From an uncultured virus (IMG/VR IMGVR_UViG_3300023108_000018) (taxonomy: Duplodnaviria > Heunggongvirae > Uroviricota > Caudoviricetes), in IMG/VR virus record IMGVR_UViG_3300023108_000018: DNA of 64,000 nucleotides; one strand, 5' to 3'. Made by a program: the position numbers and the translations under genes. Numbering within the stretch: position 1 is the stretch's first letter; the number at the start of each line of letters is the position of its first letter. This document shows, piece by piece, positions 24,841-40,798 of this stretch. A model generated the notes under the pieces. The model did not search any database and was not told the DNA's origin. It saw nothing but the letters and a program-made list of their open reading frames with translations.

Positions 24841-25542
24841 TTAGAAGATTGGGTTCCCCTCTGAGTCTATTTCAAATAGAAATTCATCAGGGTCGTGGTC
24901 AAAATTACTACAATTACTTCCATCAGGATGATGGTATTTTACTTCCATATTAAATGAGATACTATAACGATCTTTGTTACTCATGTTAGGTTCAACCATG
25001 TGCATCAAACCACTTGGGAACAGAATTAACCTTCCACTTCTTGGTTCGATATTATGACTCATTCTAAACCTAGGTGAATTAGGATGGTCAGAAACCACCT
25101 TTGTGTCTTTATCTATTAATGAAATGCATCCTTCATCACCCTCTGCATGAACGTAAAATACACCACTATACCAACAACCATTATGTAAGTGTGGAGCATT
25201 CCATGCAGAAAAATCGTTAATATTAGCCCATGAGTTACCTATATTTACTGTACACTTAGTTTGGTCTATACGATGAAACGGTAAAACCTCATCTTTAAAT
25301 TGTTGTTCTATCTTTCTCATCAATTGACTAAGTGCAGGATTTGATTCACAACCATCTACTGATTGCCATCCTGTATATTGGTTAGATACTTGTCTACCAG
25401 CAGGGTCTCTCTTTCTCATACCATCCATTGCATCTCTGCACATTTTAAGATAGTCTTCAGTGACACCTCTACGTTGATCTAGTTCAGGGTCTAATAAATC
25501 CTTCTCAAATACAAAGTTTGGAAATAATAATCTAACTGCCAT
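24841..25542 (-). CDS. putative 2OG-Fe(II) oxygenase (TIGR02466-like)
   Basis: WANIN...PHLH...SGVFY, LFPSGLMHMVEPN...RYSISFN. Confidence 0.85.
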   Translation of the reverse strand: MAVRLLFPNFVFEKDLLDPELDQRRGVTEDYLKMCRDAMDGMRKRDPAGRQVSNQYTGWQSVDGCESNPALSQLMRKIEQQFKDEVLPFHRIDQTKCTVNIGNSWANINDFSAWNAPHLHNGCWYSGVFYVHAEGDEGCISLIDKDTKVVSDHPNSPRFRMSHNIEPRSGRLILFPSGLMHMVEPNMSNKDRYSISFNMEVKYHHPDGSNCSNFDHDPDEFLFEIDSEGNPIF

Positions 25543-26425
25543 TATCTAAATCTAACTCCAATTGGTTTTCTGTTTCTTCACTTACAACTTTATGAAAAGG
25601 ACATTCAGGTGGTGGTGATTCTTCTTTATAAAACTTACCCTTCGGTTGCCAGTATTCACCTTTTCTATATGCACCCATTTGTAATGATACATTTCTTTCT
25701 TCATCACTCAACCCCTTATGTCGACCCCACTCATCCATAGATTTTGCATATTTACCATCTAAGTGAGTTGTCACACTAGAACGATTCTCTTGAAATGTTT
25801 GATGGTCGAACTGCATGTACGATGCATTCCATTCTTCTCTTTTGAAAGGTACAACCTGACATAGTGGTGTACCTTCCTTAATGGTAAATGATTTCTGTAC
25901 CTTTGGATAAAATATGATTTGTGCATTATCCATGTTACTGTTAAATGTATCAGTATCAATAATTCCTTGCCATGTTGCAAAGTATTGATTCTGAAATAAG
26001 AAGGGGTCTAAGTAGAAACATGAATAGCCTGGAGGTGTAACAATGTTCCAAGGGTTTCTCATTTTGAATGCATCATTGACAGGGCCATGAGTACCCATGT
26101 ATTCAAATGCATTTCCCATTTGTGTATGATTATGTGAAGGTGATGCATAACCATCGTTCTTATCTTTAGTATAGAACTCTGTTGAATCGGAATCTGTTCC
26201 TACACCACAGTTAACTTCCATATCTCTATTTGCAACGAGATACCATCCCATCTTTAACCAGTCATCCATTGCAGGACAGGCACGTACTGTTGTTATACGT
26301 TTTCCATGTACATCCATACCAACCTTGAGGGTTTTCCACCACTCAGGTTGAACCGTTTTCGCAAGAACTGGTCTAAAGTTCTTAACCGTGTCCGTATCGT
26401 ATGAATGGAATTCTATCGTCGGCAC
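25532..26425 (-). CDS. conserved phage hypothetical protein associated with oxygenase clusters
   Basis: CPAMDD, NPWNIVTPPGYS, GIIDTD and GTPLCQVVPFKRE motifs. Confidence 0.7.
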   Translation of the reverse strand: MPTIEFHSYDTDTVKNFRPVLAKTVQPEWWKTLKVGMDVHGKRITTVRACPAMDDWLKMGWYLVANRDMEVNCGVGTDSDSTEFYTKDKNDGYASPSHNHTQMGNAFEYMGTHGPVNDAFKMRNPWNIVTPPGYSCFYLDPFLFQNQYFATWQGIIDTDTFNSNMDNAQIIFYPKVQKSFTIKEGTPLCQVVPFKREEWNASYMQFDHQTFQENRSSVTTHLDGKYAKSMDEWGRHKGLSDEERNVSLQMGAYRKGEYWQPKGKFYKEESPPPECPFHKVVSEETENQLELDLDNGS

Positions 26426-27125
26426 TGTACTTCGTCCTCCTGTCTGTTAATTTAACCTCGTCTCCTCTGATTACTATGGAACGTCTATCCATGTATCTTG
26501 CACTTTCATTTGGTGCATCTGCACCATGAGGTATTCTACCATCAAATAAAACTAAACGATTTGGTACAAATTCCACTTCTGCAATTTGATGGTTTTTAAT
26601 ATGTTCGTTTCTTCCTTGAAGACCCTGTTGTGGTGAATCATAAATTCTTAATGTACCACCCCATTTAGGGTTCCAAAATCTGTTATAATAATATAAAAAA
26701 GATAAGTTCCAATCATCATGATCATCACAATCTGAGTGTGTAGTTCCATGACATCCATGTGTTTGAGAATTTAAACCTGCATACTGAAATCTAACCCACT
26801 CAAATTCAAAATCTGTTTGAAGTTTTCTATTAAACCAAATCGGAACGACTGCATCTAAACGATCAATATCTCCTTCAAGATTGTCCCCACGAAGAAAACT
26901 TGCACCCCAAAAAGAATGCATGGGTAATCCTGTAGGATTGTCTCCACCGACTTGATTGGTTTTAGACCAAATTGATGTTCTAGTAAATAGGTTGTCTATG
27001 TGGTGATGAAGTTCATCACTTAAATAATTATCTATTACATAAACTTTATCTAAAGGCAACTCGCAAATTTTAAAAGGTTCGTCTAAGTAGACGACCTCTA
27101 ATTGATCATCATCCTGTTTGACCAT
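26382..27125 (-). CDS. 2OG-Fe(II) oxygenase (prolyl-hydroxylase-like)
   Basis: HSD, WGGTL, PNRLVLFDGRIPHGA...R; likely start MVKQ at 27125. Confidence 0.85.
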   Translation of the reverse strand: MVKQDDDQLEVVYLDEPFKICELPLDKVYVIDNYLSDELHHHIDNLFTRTSIWSKTNQVGGDNPTGLPMHSFWGASFLRGDNLEGDIDRLDAVVPIWFNRKLQTDFEFEWVRFQYAGLNSQTHGCHGTTHSDCDDHDDWNLSFLYYYNRFWNPKWGGTLRIYDSPQQGLQGRNEHIKNHQIAEVEFVPNRLVLFDGRIPHGADAPNESARYMDRRSIVIRGDEVKLTDRRTKYSADDRIPFIRYGHG

Positions 27126-27696
27126 TTCCCTGCGTTTCCATATAAGAGTCAGGAGCAAGTAACGGTGTTGGTATAACAACACAGTAGTCATCTACTTCCT
27201 TTAAGAAATCCTCTCTAGTGTTATTAATTTCATCTTCGATTTGTACATAACAACACCACACTGCATCAGCATATTCTGCAACTCTTCTGGCCGCTGACCT
27301 TCTAGGATGTGAAGACCCTTCTCTACCTGCAAAAACAACTTCAATCAAATCATCAAAACCGTATCTATGCACAACCTCTTTAATGAATTCATGACAAATA
27401 TTATTGATTTCTTGTTTGTGTTGTTGATTTAAATTAAAACCGATAGGTGGTTCAGAGTTTTCAATGTATAGTTCAATCGCATCCTTTTCTTCATCTGTTA
27501 AGGGAAGTGCATCTTGTTTTTCAAAATCTACACCATCTTTCCATTTTACAATCTTAATTTCTAAGTCTGCGTACACTAACATTTCATAATCAAAACCCAA
27601 GTCAGGTGCATCGCAATTGTCAAAACTGTATCTCAAACCATTAGGTTTAGTGATTTGTAGATTACCGTCTTCTGTAAATATTAATTCACTTTTCAT
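27109..27696 (-). CDS. hypothetical protein, possible tail-fibre assembly chaperone-like
   Basis: acidic 195 aa; YGFDD...YADAVW segment resembles phage fibre-assembly proteins (impression only). Confidence 0.45.
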   Translation of the reverse strand: MKSELIFTEDGNLQITKPNGLRYSFDNCDAPDLGFDYEMLVYADLEIKIVKWKDGVDFEKQDALPLTDEEKDAIELYIENSEPPIGFNLNQQHKQEINNICHEFIKEVVHRYGFDDLIEVVFAGREGSSHPRRSAARRVAEYADAVWCCYVQIEDEINNTREDFLKEVDDYCVVIPTPLLAPDSYMETQGNGQTG

Positions 27697-29342: not shown

Positions 29343-30044
29343 CTATGTAATCGGTGTTGCTGGCCACTGTTGTGACAATACACCATCCCATCTTGCGACA
29401 GGAGTTCTACCTTGTCTAGCATACGTTGCAGGTTGTCTGTTCTGATATGTGAAAGGTGTTTGACCTTGTCTCGCATACGTACTAGGTTGTCTGTTTTGAT
29501 ATGTGAACGGTGTCTGCGAGTTCGAAGGATTTCTATATGTAAACGGCGACCTGTGATTATATGTAGAAGGTTGTCTTGCGTTTGCAATATAAGGATACGG
29601 TTGTTGTGCATCCCTAATGTTAGGTTCCTGTGCATTCTTAATAGTAGGTTGTTGTCCATTTCTAATGTTAGGTTCTTGTGCATTCCTAATATTAGGTTCT
29701 TGTGCATTTACTGGATTTCTATATGTAAATGGTGACCTATAGTTATATGTAAACGGTTGTCTTGCATTTGCACGATATGGAACCCTATATGTAAATGGCA
29801 CTCTATATGTAAAAGGTTGTCTCGCATTCGCAATATAAGGAACACGATATGTGAAAGGTGACTGATAAGTCACAGGTTGTTGTGCGTTAGCAGGGTACCT
29901 TGCACTGTATGTGAAAGGAGACTGATAAGTTACAGGCTGTTGAGCATTCGCAGGATATCTTGCGTTGTAAGTAAACGGTGCTTGGCTGTTGACCGTGGCA
30001 CGAGCCTGACCTTGCATCGATTGTCTGTGGAAACCTGTTGCCAT
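29343..30044 (-). CDS. Pro/Tyr/Gln-rich repeat protein A (zipper partner of 30063-31367)
   Basis: 26 Pro-terminated units of 6/8/10 aa (aa 24-215); GAGG RBS upstream. Confidence 0.85.
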   Translation of the reverse strand: MATGFHRQSMQGQARATVNSQAPFTYNARYPANAQQPVTYQSPFTYSARYPANAQQPVTYQSPFTYRVPYIANARQPFTYRVPFTYRVPYRANARQPFTYNYRSPFTYRNPVNAQEPNIRNAQEPNIRNGQQPTIKNAQEPNIRDAQQPYPYIANARQPSTYNHRSPFTYRNPSNSQTPFTYQNRQPSTYARQGQTPFTYQNRQPATYARQGRTPVARWDGVLSQQWPATPIT

Positions 30045-30062
30045 CTTACTTAATTCCTCTCA

Positions 30063-31367
30063 TTATTTCGTACTAATATTATGAACCATTAAACTATTTG
30101 CAAAGAAGTTATGATGTGGACTGTCTACACCAAAGTGATAAACCATCTCTTCATCTGCTTCTTCTATAGATTCAATAATTGACTCTGATAAATTTTGTTT
30201 TAAAATTGCATTGTTGATGTCTTTAATTGCATCACCGATCTGCAATTCTCCGTTGACTTCTTTCATGTCATCGGCATGTCCTAATTCTACTTCTTTATTC
30301 CAATCTTCTAAATTAATAACCTTCCATCCCTGATCTTCAACATAGAATGGATGACCACCTGTTACTTTTAACCACCCACCGTCTGTAAGTTGTAGTTTAT
30401 AAACTTTACACTCTCTTGGTTCCATGACATTTGATACACTTACTCTTTCCAGTTCGTTACTTTCTAGATTAAGTGAATACACCACATCACCCACTTGGAT
30501 GTTTTCTATAGGTGTCATTGAAGTGTCACCCATCCAAACTTGTGTTCCAGCAGCGAAACATCCTCCTCCACCGTAGAAGTAAACTGCTAAGAAACGGAAA
30601 GGATATGTATACGGTTGTTGCGAAGAACTAGGTTGTCTTGCGTTTGCAATATAAGGCACCCTATATGTAAACGGTGATCTAAATGCAACTGGTTGTCTTG
30701 CGTTAGCAATATAAGGTACTCGATATGTGAAAGGAGACCTAAATGCAACTGGTTGTCTTGCGTTTGCAGGATATCTAGCATTATACGTAAATGGTGTTTG
30801 ACCGTTTGCAGGATATCTAGCATTTGCAGGATATCTAGCATCATACGTAAATGGTGTTTGTCCGTTTCTTATATTAGGTTGTTGTGCATTTACAGGGTTT
30901 CTATATGTAAATGGAGACCTATGGTTATAGGTAAACGGTGATCTGTGTTGATACGTAAATGGTGACCTATGTTGATACGTAAATGGTGACCTATGTTGAT
31001 ACGTAAATGGTGATCGACCTGTTGCCTGATACGTGAAAGGTGTTTGTGCGTTCCTTATATTAGGTTCTTGTGCATTTACTGGATTCTGATATTCTGCAGG
31101 TTGTCTTGCGTTTGCAATGTAAGGTGTTTGTGCGTTTGCAATGTAAGGATAAGGTTGTTGTGCGTTAGCAATATAAGGCGTCTGACTGTTTGCAATGTAA
31201 GGATAAGGATTTTGAGTTGCTTCTTGACCTGATGCATTATTCCACCCTGTAGGTGTCTTAATATAAATCTGATCAACTGCTTTCCATGCTGTGGGAGTCT
31301 TTACCCATGCACCCCTAGTTGCATTCCAACCTGTAGGTGTTTTTACGCTTTGATTACCTGATGCCAT
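30063..31367 (-). CDS. repeat protein B: 3x (V/I)KTPTxW cap + Pro-repeat region + C-terminal Hint domain
   Basis: repeats at aa 55-246; GGGG|CFAAGT, TGGHPF and HNFFANSLMVHN Hint motifs. Confidence 0.88.
   Translation of the reverse strand: MASGNQSVKTPTGWNATRGAWVKTPTAWKAVDQIYIKTPTGWNNASGQEATQNPYPYIANSQTPYIANAQQPYPYIANAQTPYIANARQPAEYQNPVNAQEPNIRNAQTPFTYQATGRSPFTYQHRSPFTYQHRSPFTYQHRSPFTYNHRSPFTYRNPVNAQQPNIRNGQTPFTYDARYPANARYPANGQTPFTYNARYPANARQPVAFRSPFTYRVPYIANARQPVAFRSPFTYRVPYIANARQPSSSQQPYTYPFRFLAVYFYGGGGCFAAGTQVWMGDTSMTPIENIQVGDVVYSLNLESNELERVSVSNVMEPRECKVYKLQLTDGGWLKVTGGHPFYVEDQGWKVINLEDWNKEVELGHADDMKEVNGELQIGDAIKDINNAILKQNLSESIIESIEEADEEMVYHFGVDSPHHNFFANSLMVHNISTK
30946..31015. repeat. about three 24-nt tandem coding repeats (RSPFTYQH)
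   Basis: gttgatacgtaaatggtgacctat units. Confidence 0.85.
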
Positions 31368-37835: not shown

Positions 37836-37843
37836 TATTTATA
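37836..37843 (-). promoter_or_regulatory. T4-type late promoter
   Basis: TATAAATA 5 nt before ATG. Confidence 0.75.
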
Positions 37844-38555
37844 CCTGAGTGTTACTTGGGTTCTTAGAGAACCTTGCAGTTGGTACAGATTGATGTATTT
37901 TTTCTACAGTACCTGTTTTATTTACGTACACTTCACTTAATTTTCTAAGTGTACCATTATCATTTACATATACTCCTTTCACTTTTGCAATCGGGCCTAC
38001 AGTTCTAGTAGTTGAATATGGTGCTTGATATGTAAATGGTGACCTCACCGTGTAAGGGAACTGATAGGTTACTTGATATATAAACGGTGATTGTGCATTC
38101 GCAATATATGGTGATTGTGCATTTGCAGTGACCCTATATGTTGACGGTGATCTATGTTGATACGTAAACGGATTCCTTGCGTTTGCAGGATTGGGTTGTT
38201 GTGCATTCCTAATATTAGGTTCTTGTGCATTTGCAATATAAGGACTTGGATTTTGTGCCTGATATGTATTAGGTTGTCTTGCGTTTCCAGTCGCTCTATA
38301 AATTAAAGGTTGTCTTGCATTTCTAATATTAGGTTCTTGTGCAGATGTAGGGTTTCTATATGTAAACGGAGACCTATGGTTATAGGTGAAAGGACTCTGT
38401 TTAGTTGCACGATATGTAAATGGTGACCTTGCAATATACGGATAAGGTGTTTGACCAATAAGAGGTTGTCTTGCCTGATAAGTCGTTTGACCTTGCGCTT
38501 GATAAGTTGTAGGTTGTTGTGCAATATATGGTATTTGATAGTATCCTGTTGCCAT
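37839..38555 (-). CDS. Pro/Tyr/Gln-rich repeat protein C (zipper partner of 38557-39717)
   Basis: Pro-delimited even-length units at aa 10-179; two C-terminal VYVN motifs. Confidence 0.85.
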   Translation of the reverse strand: MATGYYQIPYIAQQPTTYQAQGQTTYQARQPLIGQTPYPYIARSPFTYRATKQSPFTYNHRSPFTYRNPTSAQEPNIRNARQPLIYRATGNARQPNTYQAQNPSPYIANAQEPNIRNAQQPNPANARNPFTYQHRSPSTYRVTANAQSPYIANAQSPFIYQVTYQFPYTVRSPFTYQAPYSTTRTVGPIAKVKGVYVNDNGTLRKLSEVYVNKTGTVEKIHQSVPTARFSKNPSNTQV

Positions 38556-38556
38556 T

Positions 38557-39717
38557 TTATATTCCTAATGCCTGTCCATAAGTTGCGTTTAATGATATCA
38601 TACCATGACTATATGTTGATGTATATACATTATTACTTGAATCCACACCCTTAACTGTGAAACTAACACCTTGTGCTTGTGTCCATGTAGTACCATTAGG
38701 GTTTGGGCCGTTTGGTGTTACACATGCCTTCCACAGGAATTGTCTTGCACCACTAGTTGGAACACTATAGTAAGTACCTGAACTATATCCAGCGTTAGTT
38801 GGTAATGGCCCTGAACTATAAGAGTAACAATAACTTGAACTACAGTCTTTACCACTACATGCTTGACTTGATACATCATATTTTACTGTAAATGTGGAAC
38901 TGGTTGTCAATAGACCTTGATATAAAATGTAATCAGAATAAACAGTCGCCTGATATTGATTTGTATAACCAAACCACAATGCCTTAATAGAACTTTGGGC
39001 AGTTGCATTTGAGAACTCCATTGAACACCCTACCTCAGGTGGAGGGTTTGTGGATGCTCTTGATTGCGTAGTATACCAGTACCCAGCTGAACCAGTACCA
39101 GGCCCCCAAACTTGTTCTAGTGGGTCATAGATATATGCAGCTGGTTGTCTTGCATTATAAGACGATCTTGCGTTTGCAATGTATGGATAAGGTGTTCTTC
39201 CTATAAATGGAGACTGATATGAATATGGTGTTTGACCAATTGTAGGCACTGGTTGTTGTGCGTTACTAGGTGATTGATATGACTGTTGTGCATTTCTAAT
39301 CACTGGTTGTTGTGCATTTGTAGGATTTCTATATGTAAACGGTGACCTATAGTTGTACGTAAACGGTGATTGTTTATTTGCTGGTACCTGATATGTAAAT
39401 GGTGTCTGCGAATTTGCAATATAAGGATTCGCTTGTTGTGCCGAATATGTAAATGGTGATCTGTGTTGATAAGTAAACGGAGACCTAACAGTGTAATTGA
39501 AAGGTTGTTGTGCGTTTCTTATAAACGGAGATTGTTGAACAGCAGGTGTCCTATATGTTACAGGTTGTCTGTTGTTGTATGTTAGGGGTTGTCTTGCCTG
39601 TGCAGGTGTTCTACCAGTTGCCTGTTTGGTTTCAGGTGATTGTGCGTTAACTACTGCTTGCCCTTGATAGGGTTGTTGGAAAGTCGTCCCTGTGTTTATA
39701 TAGATTTCATCAGCCAT
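38557..39717 (-). CDS. repeat protein D: Pro-repeat region + C-terminal Cys/Tyr/Ser-rich domain
   Basis: repeats at aa 17-192; about 190-aa non-repetitive C-terminal domain with 5 Cys. Confidence 0.85.
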   Translation of the reverse strand: MADEIYINTGTTFQQPYQGQAVVNAQSPETKQATGRTPAQARQPLTYNNRQPVTYRTPAVQQSPFIRNAQQPFNYTVRSPFTYQHRSPFTYSAQQANPYIANSQTPFTYQVPANKQSPFTYNYRSPFTYRNPTNAQQPVIRNAQQSYQSPSNAQQPVPTIGQTPYSYQSPFIGRTPYPYIANARSSYNARQPAAYIYDPLEQVWGPGTGSAGYWYTTQSRASTNPPPEVGCSMEFSNATAQSSIKALWFGYTNQYQATVYSDYILYQGLLTTSSTFTVKYDVSSQACSGKDCSSSYCYSYSSGPLPTNAGYSSGTYYSVPTSGARQFLWKACVTPNGPNPNGTTWTQAQGVSFTVKGVDSSNNVYTSTYSHGMISLNATYGQALGI

Positions 39718-39718
39718 A

Positions 39719-40798
39719 TCATATCACAAACCATAAGTGTCCATTAGACGTACTTCCTACACTTGACGGTGCAGAAGATACTGTCTCGTAATCTAACACT
39801 ACATTATCACTATCCGTTTTAATTCCGTTAGAAGTGTTGACACTCATAGTTGTCCCTGTAAGGTCTAGACCATCTCCACCTGTTACTGAATTCGAACCTG
39901 TAAACGATATAGTGTTATTCGCATCATCATAAGATACAGTGATATTAGTATGTGTACCAGCAGCAATTGCAGTTGCAACTGCATCTTGTGCCTGTTCGTC
40001 AGTGTAGTTTGCAGGTGCATCAGCGGATTCCCAATTCGTTGTTGAAGAGTTGTAGATTAACATCTGACCATTATTAGGAGATGATGCATCTACGTTACCC
40101 AACGATGCTAAATTGTGATTTGTTATACTGGATACGGTTCCTGTTACATTACCGACAACATTACCCTGTACATCACCTTTAACTAATGCACCACTTGGTA
40201 AGTTGATATGATTTTGGAAATATACTTCACCATCAAATTCGATAGGTGCAGAAGTAGTTAAGAGTGTTGTCTTAGTTGCACCGTCACCATTGAAGATTAA
40301 TCCATTGTCGTTTGTATTATAAATTGTATTAGCGGCAGTTTCAGAAAAGTAACCTACAGATGCACTTCCTTGTCCTGTAAATCCTAAGTAAGAACCAGTA
40401 AATGAATAAATTACAATCTTATCTGAGTTTGCAGCTGCTGAAACTAGGTCTATTCTATTATATGTTCCATCACCTTGAACATTACCTAATGAATAGTCAT
40501 CACCCTCAAATAGGTGAACACCATTCTTAAAAACTTGTATTCTGTTTGCAACAAATTTTAGAGTATATCCAAAGTTATCTACACCAGTAAATCTTGTATT
40601 ACCGTTAGTTCCATCTGAACCAGTAAAGATATACTCTTGTAAGAAGAAAGACTTGTCTTCAAGACTGTTTAATGCATCGATAATATTACTTTTTTCAGTT
40701 GTGCGTAATCCTGATATCGCACCGACATCATTTGCAAGATCGTTGTACTGTCTTCTAAAGTCTTCTATCGTACTGTGATTGTCAACTGTCCTAGCCAC
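39719..40798 (-). CDS. short tail fibre / fibre-like protein
   Basis: TIEDFRRQYN N-terminus; QVFKNG domain; C-terminal SAPSSVGSTSNGHLWFVI. Confidence 0.75.
   Translation of the reverse strand: MARTVDNHSTIEDFRRQYNDLANDVGAISGLRTTEKSNIIDALNSLEDKSFFLQEYIFTGSDGTNGNTRFTGVDNFGYTLKFVANRIQVFKNGVHLFEGDDYSLGNVQGDGTYNRIDLVSAAANSDKIVIYSFTGSYLGFTGQGSASVGYFSETAANTIYNTNDNGLIFNGDGATKTTLLTTSAPIEFDGEVYFQNHINLPSGALVKGDVQGNVVGNVTGTVSSITNHNLASLGNVDASSPNNGQMLIYNSSTTNWESADAPANYTDEQAQDAVATAIAAGTHTNITVSYDDANNTISFTGSNSVTGGDGLDLTGTTMSVNTSNGIKTDSDNVVLDYETVSSAPSSVGSTSNGHLWFVI

Follow-up and report, generated by a model that had tools for sequence, protein, structure and literature searches.

Fibrous proteins of phages are normally parallel homotrimers. 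Chains that run out to a tip and back again are described for the needle of T4 gp37 (in passages of PMC9659904 and PMC3004832). In the stalk of the streptococcal antigen I/II (SpaP), as set out in a section of PMC7732690, antiparallel repeat arms interlock with Tyr of one arm in pockets of the other, a variable binding domain is carried at the tip, over 50 nm away, and the base is locked by the N- and C-terminal parts. Fibres with self-cleaving C-terminal domains of the S74 type that aid oligomerisation are also known (from part of bioRxiv 10.1101/2024.10.28.620165). Here we describe two adjacent genes, D and C, in a 64,000-nucleotide stretch of DNA (the window) from an uncultured virus of the Caudoviricetes, IMG/VR record IMGVR_UViG_3300023108_000018. 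Their products carry proline-punctuated repeat arms that mirror one another, and we read D and C, with a probability of roughly 0.7, as the two antiparallel arms of a single fibre shaft, long, thin and hairpin-like, in a T4-like marine phage. A second mirrored pair in the window, A and B, provides a comparison throughout. The four genes divide as follows, with base, arm and tip naming places in the proposed fibre:

38557-39717, minus strand: gene D, 386 residues (open reading frame and translation), with putative base segment, outward arm and tip domain
39634-39717, minus strand: D residues 1-28, putative base segment (MADEIYIN...), from BLASTP matches to fused single-gene forms and conserved alignment columns
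39142-39633, minus strand: D residues 29-192, putative outward arm of 23 Pro-ended units, all of even length
38560-39141, minus strand: D residues 193-386, putative Cys-containing tip domain, beta-rich in a middling AlphaFold 2 (AF2) model
37839-38555, minus strand: gene C, 238 residues, starting MATGY, with putative return arm and base domain
38037-38528, minus strand: C residues 10-173, putative return arm, mirror-complementary to D 29-192
37842-38036, minus strand: C residues 174-238, putative base domain with two VYVN..GT..K hairpin-like motifs, common to the C-termini of fused forms
30063-31367, minus strand: gene A, 434 residues, with putative base domain 1-54, arm 55-246 and Hint domain 270-430
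29343-30044, minus strand: gene B, 233 residues, with putative return arm 24-215 and an 18-residue base tail

To compare the arms, each sequence was cut into blocks after every Pro. D 29-192 and C 10-179 give 23 blocks each, all 23 of even length in both. In an ungapped antiparallel alignment (1-based i+j = 201), D 29-192 faces C 173-10, 164 residues on each side, and 15 of 23 prolines coincide; the remaining boundaries are places where a Pro has been lost on one side. The original prediction, made from the letters alone, had paired these same two segments block by block and had merged blocks where a Pro was missing. Cutting after each Pro reproduces exactly the blocks that it listed, and the mergers fall at the same places in the alignment. 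It had also remarked that both pairs share a layout, with the gene bearing an extra domain first and the near-pure repeat gene second, and this is indeed the arrangement of both.

As a chance test, the Pro-delimited blocks of one partner were shuffled 2000 times and the best register was taken each time. For antiparallel C/D this null is 10.4±1.1 with a maximum of 16, and 15 coincidences were reached in 7 of 2000 shuffles; the parallel orientation yields 12, matched by 315 of 2000. Antiparallel A/B has 25 of 27 prolines in coincidence against a null of 13.4±1.4, a value that none of 2000 shuffles reached. In the same test A/C, A/D, B/C, B/D and all self comparisons lie at the null, which agrees with the earlier claim that C/D is a second mirrored pair whose unit series differs from that of A/B.

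A residue-level test gives much stronger support for C/D than the prolines do. We trained a residue-pair log-odds matrix on 53 pairs related to A and B, with the window's own pairs and all D-family pairs excluded; its top pairs are E-F, H-R, I-R, G-Y, P-P, N-V, F-Q, A-Y, Q-T and N-S. Transferred to the window, this matrix scores antiparallel D×C at 93 bits over 165 positions, against 8 for the second-best register and a shuffle null of 9±7 (maximum 36 among 100), and A×B at 263 bits (null 14±8). The non-cognate antiparallel combinations reach only 7 (D×B), 15 (A×C), 5 (A×D) and 9 bits (B×C), and parallel scans of all combinations give at most 5. Because D×C scores high in one register only, and does so with a matrix learned from the A family, C/D by this scoring obeys the pairing rule of that family, in a single register and with no match to the arms of the other pair. 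The C/D mirror is real and far beyond chance. The cognate-versus-non-cognate comparison that the original prediction had proposed thus comes out, in silico, as it anticipated, and the two pairs may be partner-specific.

The mirror is conserved in relatives. IMG/VR yielded 32 D-related loci, and 80 were retained from 102 that are related to A, making 112 in total; two repeat open reading frames lie on the query strand in 88, one in 13 and three in 11. For array spans, a crude regular expression for the units gave a correlation of only r = 0.865, with stray units from tip domains, and an architecture table was used in its place. After removal of identical pairs, 64 distinct adjacent pairs remained, with arms of 154-532 residues and, in the A family, constant flanks of 54 residues before the arm of the first protein and 19 after that of the second. 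The antiparallel proline z-score exceeds 3 in all 64 (range 5.0-11.9, median 8.9), and coincidence is near-complete in many, for example 59/60 and 44/44; the parallel z-score has a median of 2.9 and exceeds 3 in 27 of 64. When ranked among all partners that are under 80% similar, the cognate one gives the best mirror in 59 of 64 cases (the exceptions being L022, L023, L049, L060 and L067), with a mean coincidence of 0.85 versus 0.51. Three loci (L037, L039 and L047) have the reversed order, with a short return-arm gene first and a gene for base plus Hint domain second, and 22-23 of their 23 prolines coincide.

Between close homologues, insertions and deletions in the first gene (X) are mirrored in size and order in the second (Y), including between the window's own D/C and a relative, another expectation of the original prediction that held:

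L074 vs L078: X -18 at 218 (expected at 138 in Y); Y -18 at 135
L088 vs L100: X -18, -16, -12; Y -12, -16, -18
L053 vs L057: X 36, 10, 2, 24; Y 22, 2, 2, 10, 36
L059 vs L066: X +88; Y +88
L002 vs window D/C: X 2, 20, 6, -4, 4, 2; Y -4, 10, -4, 6, 20, 2

At the DNA level, A (30630-31205) contains tandem duplications with periods of 54, 24 (4.6 copies) and 60, in gene order, and B (29400-29975) contains 60, 24 (4.6 copies) and 54, with similar divergence between copies (84-88%); the two arrays seem to have expanded in step.

Could such a mirror be a by-product of DNA history, such as an inverted duplication, antisense coding or an mRNA hairpin, or of low-complexity chance? The small vocabulary of 6- and 8-residue units does raise the number of background matches, and in 27 of the 64 pairs the parallel z-score, too, is above 3. 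We nevertheless give this explanation almost no weight. A and B share no inverted DNA repeat, and the D/C region has only three weak inverted arms of 16-21 nucleotides; both genes of each pair lie on the same strand, and Pro (CCN) cannot face Pro in frame on an antisense strand. Nulls that preserve the vocabulary by shuffling blocks are exceeded in all 64 pairs, and the cognate partner beats non-cognate ones in the 59 noted above. With no inverted repeats to carry it, the DNA-level explanation was rejected. Since the mirror then exists at the protein level only, it must be kept by selection on the proteins.

Examination of the units shows what is being matched. Logos built from 969 eight-residue and 677 six-residue matched unit pairs define two types. 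T units read F-T-Y-[QNS]-[HNAY]-R-[SQ]-P (8) or F-T-Y-R-N-P (6), and A units read [NY]-I-[RA]-[NSD]-A-[QR]-[QE]-P (8) or [VA]-[NS]-[AG]-[QR]-x-P (6). Both arms contain both types, and T units stand opposite A units of equal length in the mirror alignment. Across the 64 pairs, with 456 blocks set aside for an inner proline on one side, facing units are T/A in 1037 cases, T with an unclassified non-T unit in 609, T/T in 25 and A/A in one. When the prolines are aligned, Tyr3 of the T unit stands opposite Ala/Gly5 of the A unit.

These counts bear on the idea that D and C do not touch, each lining up in opposite directions along a third periodic partner, which could be another protein of the fibre or a polymer of the host. 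With a shared template one would expect like units to lie level with each other, and 1037 T/A against 26 like-with-like facings is the opposite of that; position-specific covariation between the chains and the existence of fused hairpin forms (both below) also point to direct contact. We therefore regard a third partner as very improbable, and return to the reading in which the two arms pair with each other.

The arms have a strict two-residue period. Pro-Pro spacings in the arms of the 64 pairs are even in 5059 of 5067 cases, compared with 191 of 443 in the stretches that follow the arms; units are 2, 4, 6, 8 or 10 residues long, 8 being the commonest length (2486 of 5067 spacings). Mutual information between facing T and A units is found only where odd positions meet odd positions (T1 with A5/A7, T5 with A1/A3, T7 with A1/A3; 0.55-0.81 bits), all other cells being at or below 0.16 bits. 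Even positions are near-invariant: Thr2 and Arg6 of the T unit, like its Tyr3, are at 96-98%, and Ile2 of the A unit, also even, is at 98%. This periodicity points to extended beta-type strands with alternating faces and with the prolines all on one side, and it argues against a three-residue period of the polyproline or collagen kind; the arm spacings do not follow the Gly-X-Y pattern or multiples of three that a collagen-like or polyproline II (PPII) arm would have. Period two alone is insufficient against a stack of short strands. Parity is also kept across two-residue 'YP' insertions, which are faced by 10-residue units, and this would be unexpected in such a stack.

Taken further, the arms may carry a protein pairing code, a proposal to which we give somewhat less than an even chance. 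Its two 'letters' would be the T and A units, each available in a 6- and an 8-residue size, and a letter would pair solely with the other kind, always antiparallel. At the level of residues, the proposed partners would be Y-A/G, F-E/Q, T-Q, H-R, R-I, S-N and P-P. Unit order would then act as an address that sets the register and would let two or more such fibres, like A/B and D/C of one phage, assemble next to each other without mixing, and the arrays would grow and shrink through compensating duplications at mirrored positions in the two genes. Genomes with two fibre families fit the 'barcode' idea of the original prediction in silico. Eight contigs, the window's own included, contain both a D-type gene or pair and an A-type pair, and in five of these genomes both families are split pairs; there, cross-family combinations score at most 16 bits and cognate pairs 62-604 bits, bar the D-type pair of L022/L027.

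Single-gene forms indicate how D and C are related. Eleven loci found with D have one repeat open reading frame only, of 443-531 residues, that starts like D (MADEIYIN...) and ends like C. By BLASTP, D 1-180 matches residues 1-172 of one such fused protein, P0005, at 45% identity (E 6e-33), and C 20-232 matches its residues 337-531 at 53% identity (E 4e-58). Of 37 collected proteins with both end marks, 25 are self-mirrored at z > 3, and their centre of symmetry is displaced slightly from the middle towards the N-terminus, which the longer C-terminal base would lead one to expect. In locus L117 the gene order is a homologue of the 359-residue gene upstream of D, the fused gene, an LtfC-like 110-residue gene, and then fibre genes of 81 and about 525 residues, as in the window. 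The fused gene stands at the syntenic position of D+C, so that D+C fills the place of one gene elsewhere; given such fused, syntenic forms, D/C is better described as two arms of one hairpin split at the tip. L117 is JAAXIF010000105.1, a 121-kb contig binned into a Sphingobacteriales metagenome-assembled genome (MAG); the contig probably belongs to a phage and was placed in a bacterial MAG by the binning, so that its label is no sure guide to the host.

Split forms are the ones whose first protein ends in a globular domain of 190-280 residues. We predict that the split lets this domain sit on the hairpin tip while tethered by one end only. A split produced by faulty assembly was considered and rejected, as the same split appears in many independent contigs and C is preceded by a ribosome-binding site of its own (AGGA about 9 nucleotides ahead of the ATG). 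The gap between the D stop and the C start is a single nucleotide, and the D ATG lies 1 nucleotide past the stop of the 359-residue upstream gene. MATG(F/Y) is found as a start word at two places in the window, C and B, where none would be expected. The B ATG is in frame with A, with only the A stop and six codons (30045-30062) between them; as the corresponding spacing in other pairs is not consistently in frame, this is probably a coincidence.

The hairpin reading thus draws on the mirror and its complementarity, its conservation with mirrored indels, the fused forms and a tail-fibre gene context described below, and from these we infer that D and C pair physically and are present in the virion. 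In the proposed fibre, D would run outward from the base and carry its beta-rich domain at the distal tip, and C would start at the tip and run back, leaving both chain ends at the base. The two 164-residue arms would lie side by side, antiparallel and residue by residue, held in a single register by complementary T and A units with Tyr opposite Ala or Gly. The base would comprise D 1-28 and C 174-238, the shaft D 29-192 against C 173-10, and the tip D 193-386. An extended strand rises about 0.33 nm per residue; if the strands are extended, the D/C shaft would measure about 55 nm and the A/B shaft about 65 nm, with lengths of up to about 175 nm among relatives.

The arms could also pair in some other way than as a closed hairpin, either with swapped or staggered neighbours in polymers, sheets or a mesh, or as three hairpins in a six-stranded needle. 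The sequence data fix only the antiparallel register and not which molecules pair. Both strand faces are strongly conserved, which suggests contacts beyond one partner strand, and the rule that places Tyr opposite Ala/Gly would fit a tight shared core; in the portion of PMC9659904 on its needle, T4 gp37 is a six-stranded antiparallel structure made from three chains. On the other hand, one out-and-back unit is the simplest account of fused single chains and of base segments that are short and constant, at 54 residues (X) and 19 (Y), and a register that holds over the full length, from first unit to last, argues against staggered polymers. We consider these arrangements unlikely, and the closed hairpin remains the reading we prefer.

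Several results weigh against that reading. The proline test on its own is only moderately strong for C/D, with its 15 of 23 coincidences matched in 7 of 2000 shuffles, and 12 of the 37 fused proteins have no significant self-mirror in the ungapped proline test. L083 and L084 are otherwise 99-100% identical and differ by -36 in X but +18 in Y, which could be a repeat assembly error or a real mismatch. More generally, the arms are unequal in some pairs (L049, L060, L067; L083 vs L084), by 18-88 residues or through unequal indels; repeats that collapsed in assembly may account for these, or the pairs may be natural intermediates that carry a bulge. When whole proteins are scored without gaps, the D-type pair of L022 and L027, two near-identical genomes, reaches only 11 bits, although its proline z-score is 5.0. 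Structure prediction does not help: the AF2 model of fused P0005, from a 30-sequence alignment, has a mean predicted local distance difference test (pLDDT) score of 37.9, and its only long run above 50 is the C-terminal base part, with four strands; the ESM Atlas model of C has a pLDDT of 0.47. A complex of D 17-200 with C 1-188, predicted by ESMFold2 without alignments, has a score of 0.00 and partner pLDDT below 50, which counts neither for nor against the pairing. Finally, the family was found in no cultured phage, either in the GenBank phage collection or among the nearest cultured relatives. Searches of that collection by megablast, by tblastn (B, D and the A N-terminus) and by blastn (both pairs) gave no match, although a low-complexity filter may hide repeats, and B compared directly with Melnitz, HTVC008M, Mosig and S-BM3 gave none, in a search whose positive control reached E 4.8e-42.

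Other databases returned little. Against PDB sequences, C and D have nothing at E ≤1, and a single match of B at E 0.27 was set aside as chance-level. ESM Atlas holds unnamed viral clusters only, at scores below 0.9; related proteins in the protein collection are named only 'hypothetical protein'; and profile searches with the arms matched no Pfam or PHROG family. Literature searches with unit strings and with terms combining cyanophage, Hint, repeat and tail fibre found nothing on this family.

Beyond the arms, the putative base is conserved. The N-terminal columns of D are nearly invariant in homologue alignments, and phrog_13729 matches C residues 189-223 (E 1.4e-5). By eye, the D N-terminus (IYINTGT) and the C tail (two VYVN..GT) resemble three VKTPTGW motifs at the A N-terminus; a base motif [VI]-[YK]-[VI]-x-T/D-x-x-G-[TW] can be drawn three times in A 1-54, once in D 1-15 and twice in C 189-223. 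From its position, the D tip (193-386) would be the working, probably receptor-binding, end of the fibre. Its AF2 model has a mean pLDDT of 63.2, a predicted template modelling (pTM) score of 0.62 and 12 strands, and its homologues are three protein clusters and the IMG/VR loci. Profile searches assign it no Pfam or PHROG family, Foldseek finds no PDB match at E ≤0.001 (best 0.05), and VIA-align against 48,161 chains has a best Z of 4.9, within the range of common beta arrangements, so that no fold is named.

The tip of the first protein takes three forms in the A family: 11-39 residues only, a Hint domain of about 170-200 residues after a GGGG-Cys junction, or an unrelated domain of about 150-165 residues. 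In A itself, Pfam Intein_splicing matches residues 280-430 (E 1.2e-11; 45.1 bits vs a cutoff of 35.8), and all the Hint marks are present in residues 270-430 (30078-30560): Cys270, T336-x-x-H339 and H429-N430. No Cys, Ser or Thr nucleophile comes next; the domain is followed by Ile431 and then S-T-K and the stop, which makes self-cleavage, rather than splicing, the likely reaction. Tip-less relatives of A end about where cleavage at GGGG|C would leave A, and this suggests that the Hint domain may be removed after assembly.

The genomic setting is that of a tail-fibre locus. All window genes lie on the minus strand, and their content is the structural module of a T4-like myovirus, with wedge proteins resembling gp8 and gp6, sheath, portal, major head protein, terminase and neck proteins. 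Methylophilales phage Melnitz and Pelagibacter phage HTVC008M have major head proteins with 65-67% identity to the one encoded here. D/C lies directly downstream of a 2363-residue DUF4815/VrlC-like protein, amid several tail-fibre-like genes, and its immediate neighbours are:

39719-40798, minus strand: upstream neighbour, 359 residues, fibre-like protein with a phrog_13853 motif, syntenic in L117
37498-37830, minus strand: downstream neighbour, 110 residues, LtfC-like candidate fibre assembly factor with a phrog_3304 match

The match of the 110-residue neighbour is to phrog_3304, 'L-shaped tail fiber protein assembly' (E 5.1e-23), and its Pfam LtfC score of 22.1 bits is under the cutoff of 27. 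Passages of PMC7029224 describe, in pelagimyophages and cyanomyophages, a hypervariable 'host recognition cluster' between VrlC and the neck genes. The position of D/C corresponds to that cluster as outlined there, and those passages make no mention of the mirror family. A few genes downstream of B, the window has two 2-oxoglutarate (2OG)-Fe(II) oxygenase genes on the minus strand, at 26382-27191 and 24841-25542, with Pfam matches to PF13640 (E 2.8e-9) and PF13759 (E 3.5e-20). PF13640 includes prolyl-hydroxylase-like enzymes, and it is conceivable that the regularly spaced arm prolines are their substrates.

If the hairpin reading is correct, shaft strands that behave as 'reverse complements', sometimes in two genes, would be a new design principle for protein fibres, with a rule, readable from sequence, that governs register and choice of partner and holds over arms of 154-532 residues. 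The two arrays would also be a natural case of coupled evolution, and the fibre a scaffold free to vary in length and in tip domain, in abundant marine phages whose host recognition is poorly understood. If the pairing code were true as well, it would amount to a protein counterpart, found in nature, of nucleic-acid complementarity, and one that could be re-programmed. To the original prediction the present work adds the test of the C/D pair, the transfer of the rule across families, the parity and covariation statistics and the fused, syntenic single-gene forms. D and C most likely make up the two arms of one such fibre, kept in register by a pairing rule that is not known from earlier descriptions.

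The closest parallels are partial. T4 gp37 carries metal-binding His-x-His rungs; the arms of A, B, C and D have no H-x-H. Like the gp37 needle, D/C would run out to a tip and back in long antiparallel beta strands with a receptor-binding head at the far end, although for D/C this is read from sequence; the D/C mirror register and the self-mirrored fused forms are what out-and-back arms of that type would look like. Unlike gp37, C and D lack any sequence or profile similarity to it in Pfam, PHROG or PDB, and where the gp37 needle is short, the arms here span 154-532 residues, combine two unit types that complement each other and can be divided over two genes. The topology of antigen I/II, with a tip domain between antiparallel arms and both termini at the base, is matched by the fused relatives only, as the chain in window D/C is split after the tip domain. 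Antigen I/II is also a bacterial, cell-wall-anchored protein that pairs an alpha-helical arm (alanine-rich, with heptads) with a polyproline-II arm (PxxP), whereas D/C is viral, has no sequence relation to it that we found, and has both unit types in both arms with a period of two; the spacings follow neither seven, as in a helical arm, nor three, as in a PPII arm. With self-cleaving fibre modules and Hint/intein proteins the likeness is to A, which has an intact-looking Hint domain at its tip end; D has none, and its tip is an unrelated beta-rich domain. What sets the D/C family apart from both gp37 and antigen I/II is the intermixing of complementary units, a putative two-residue code, and arms that change together although they are encoded in separate genes.

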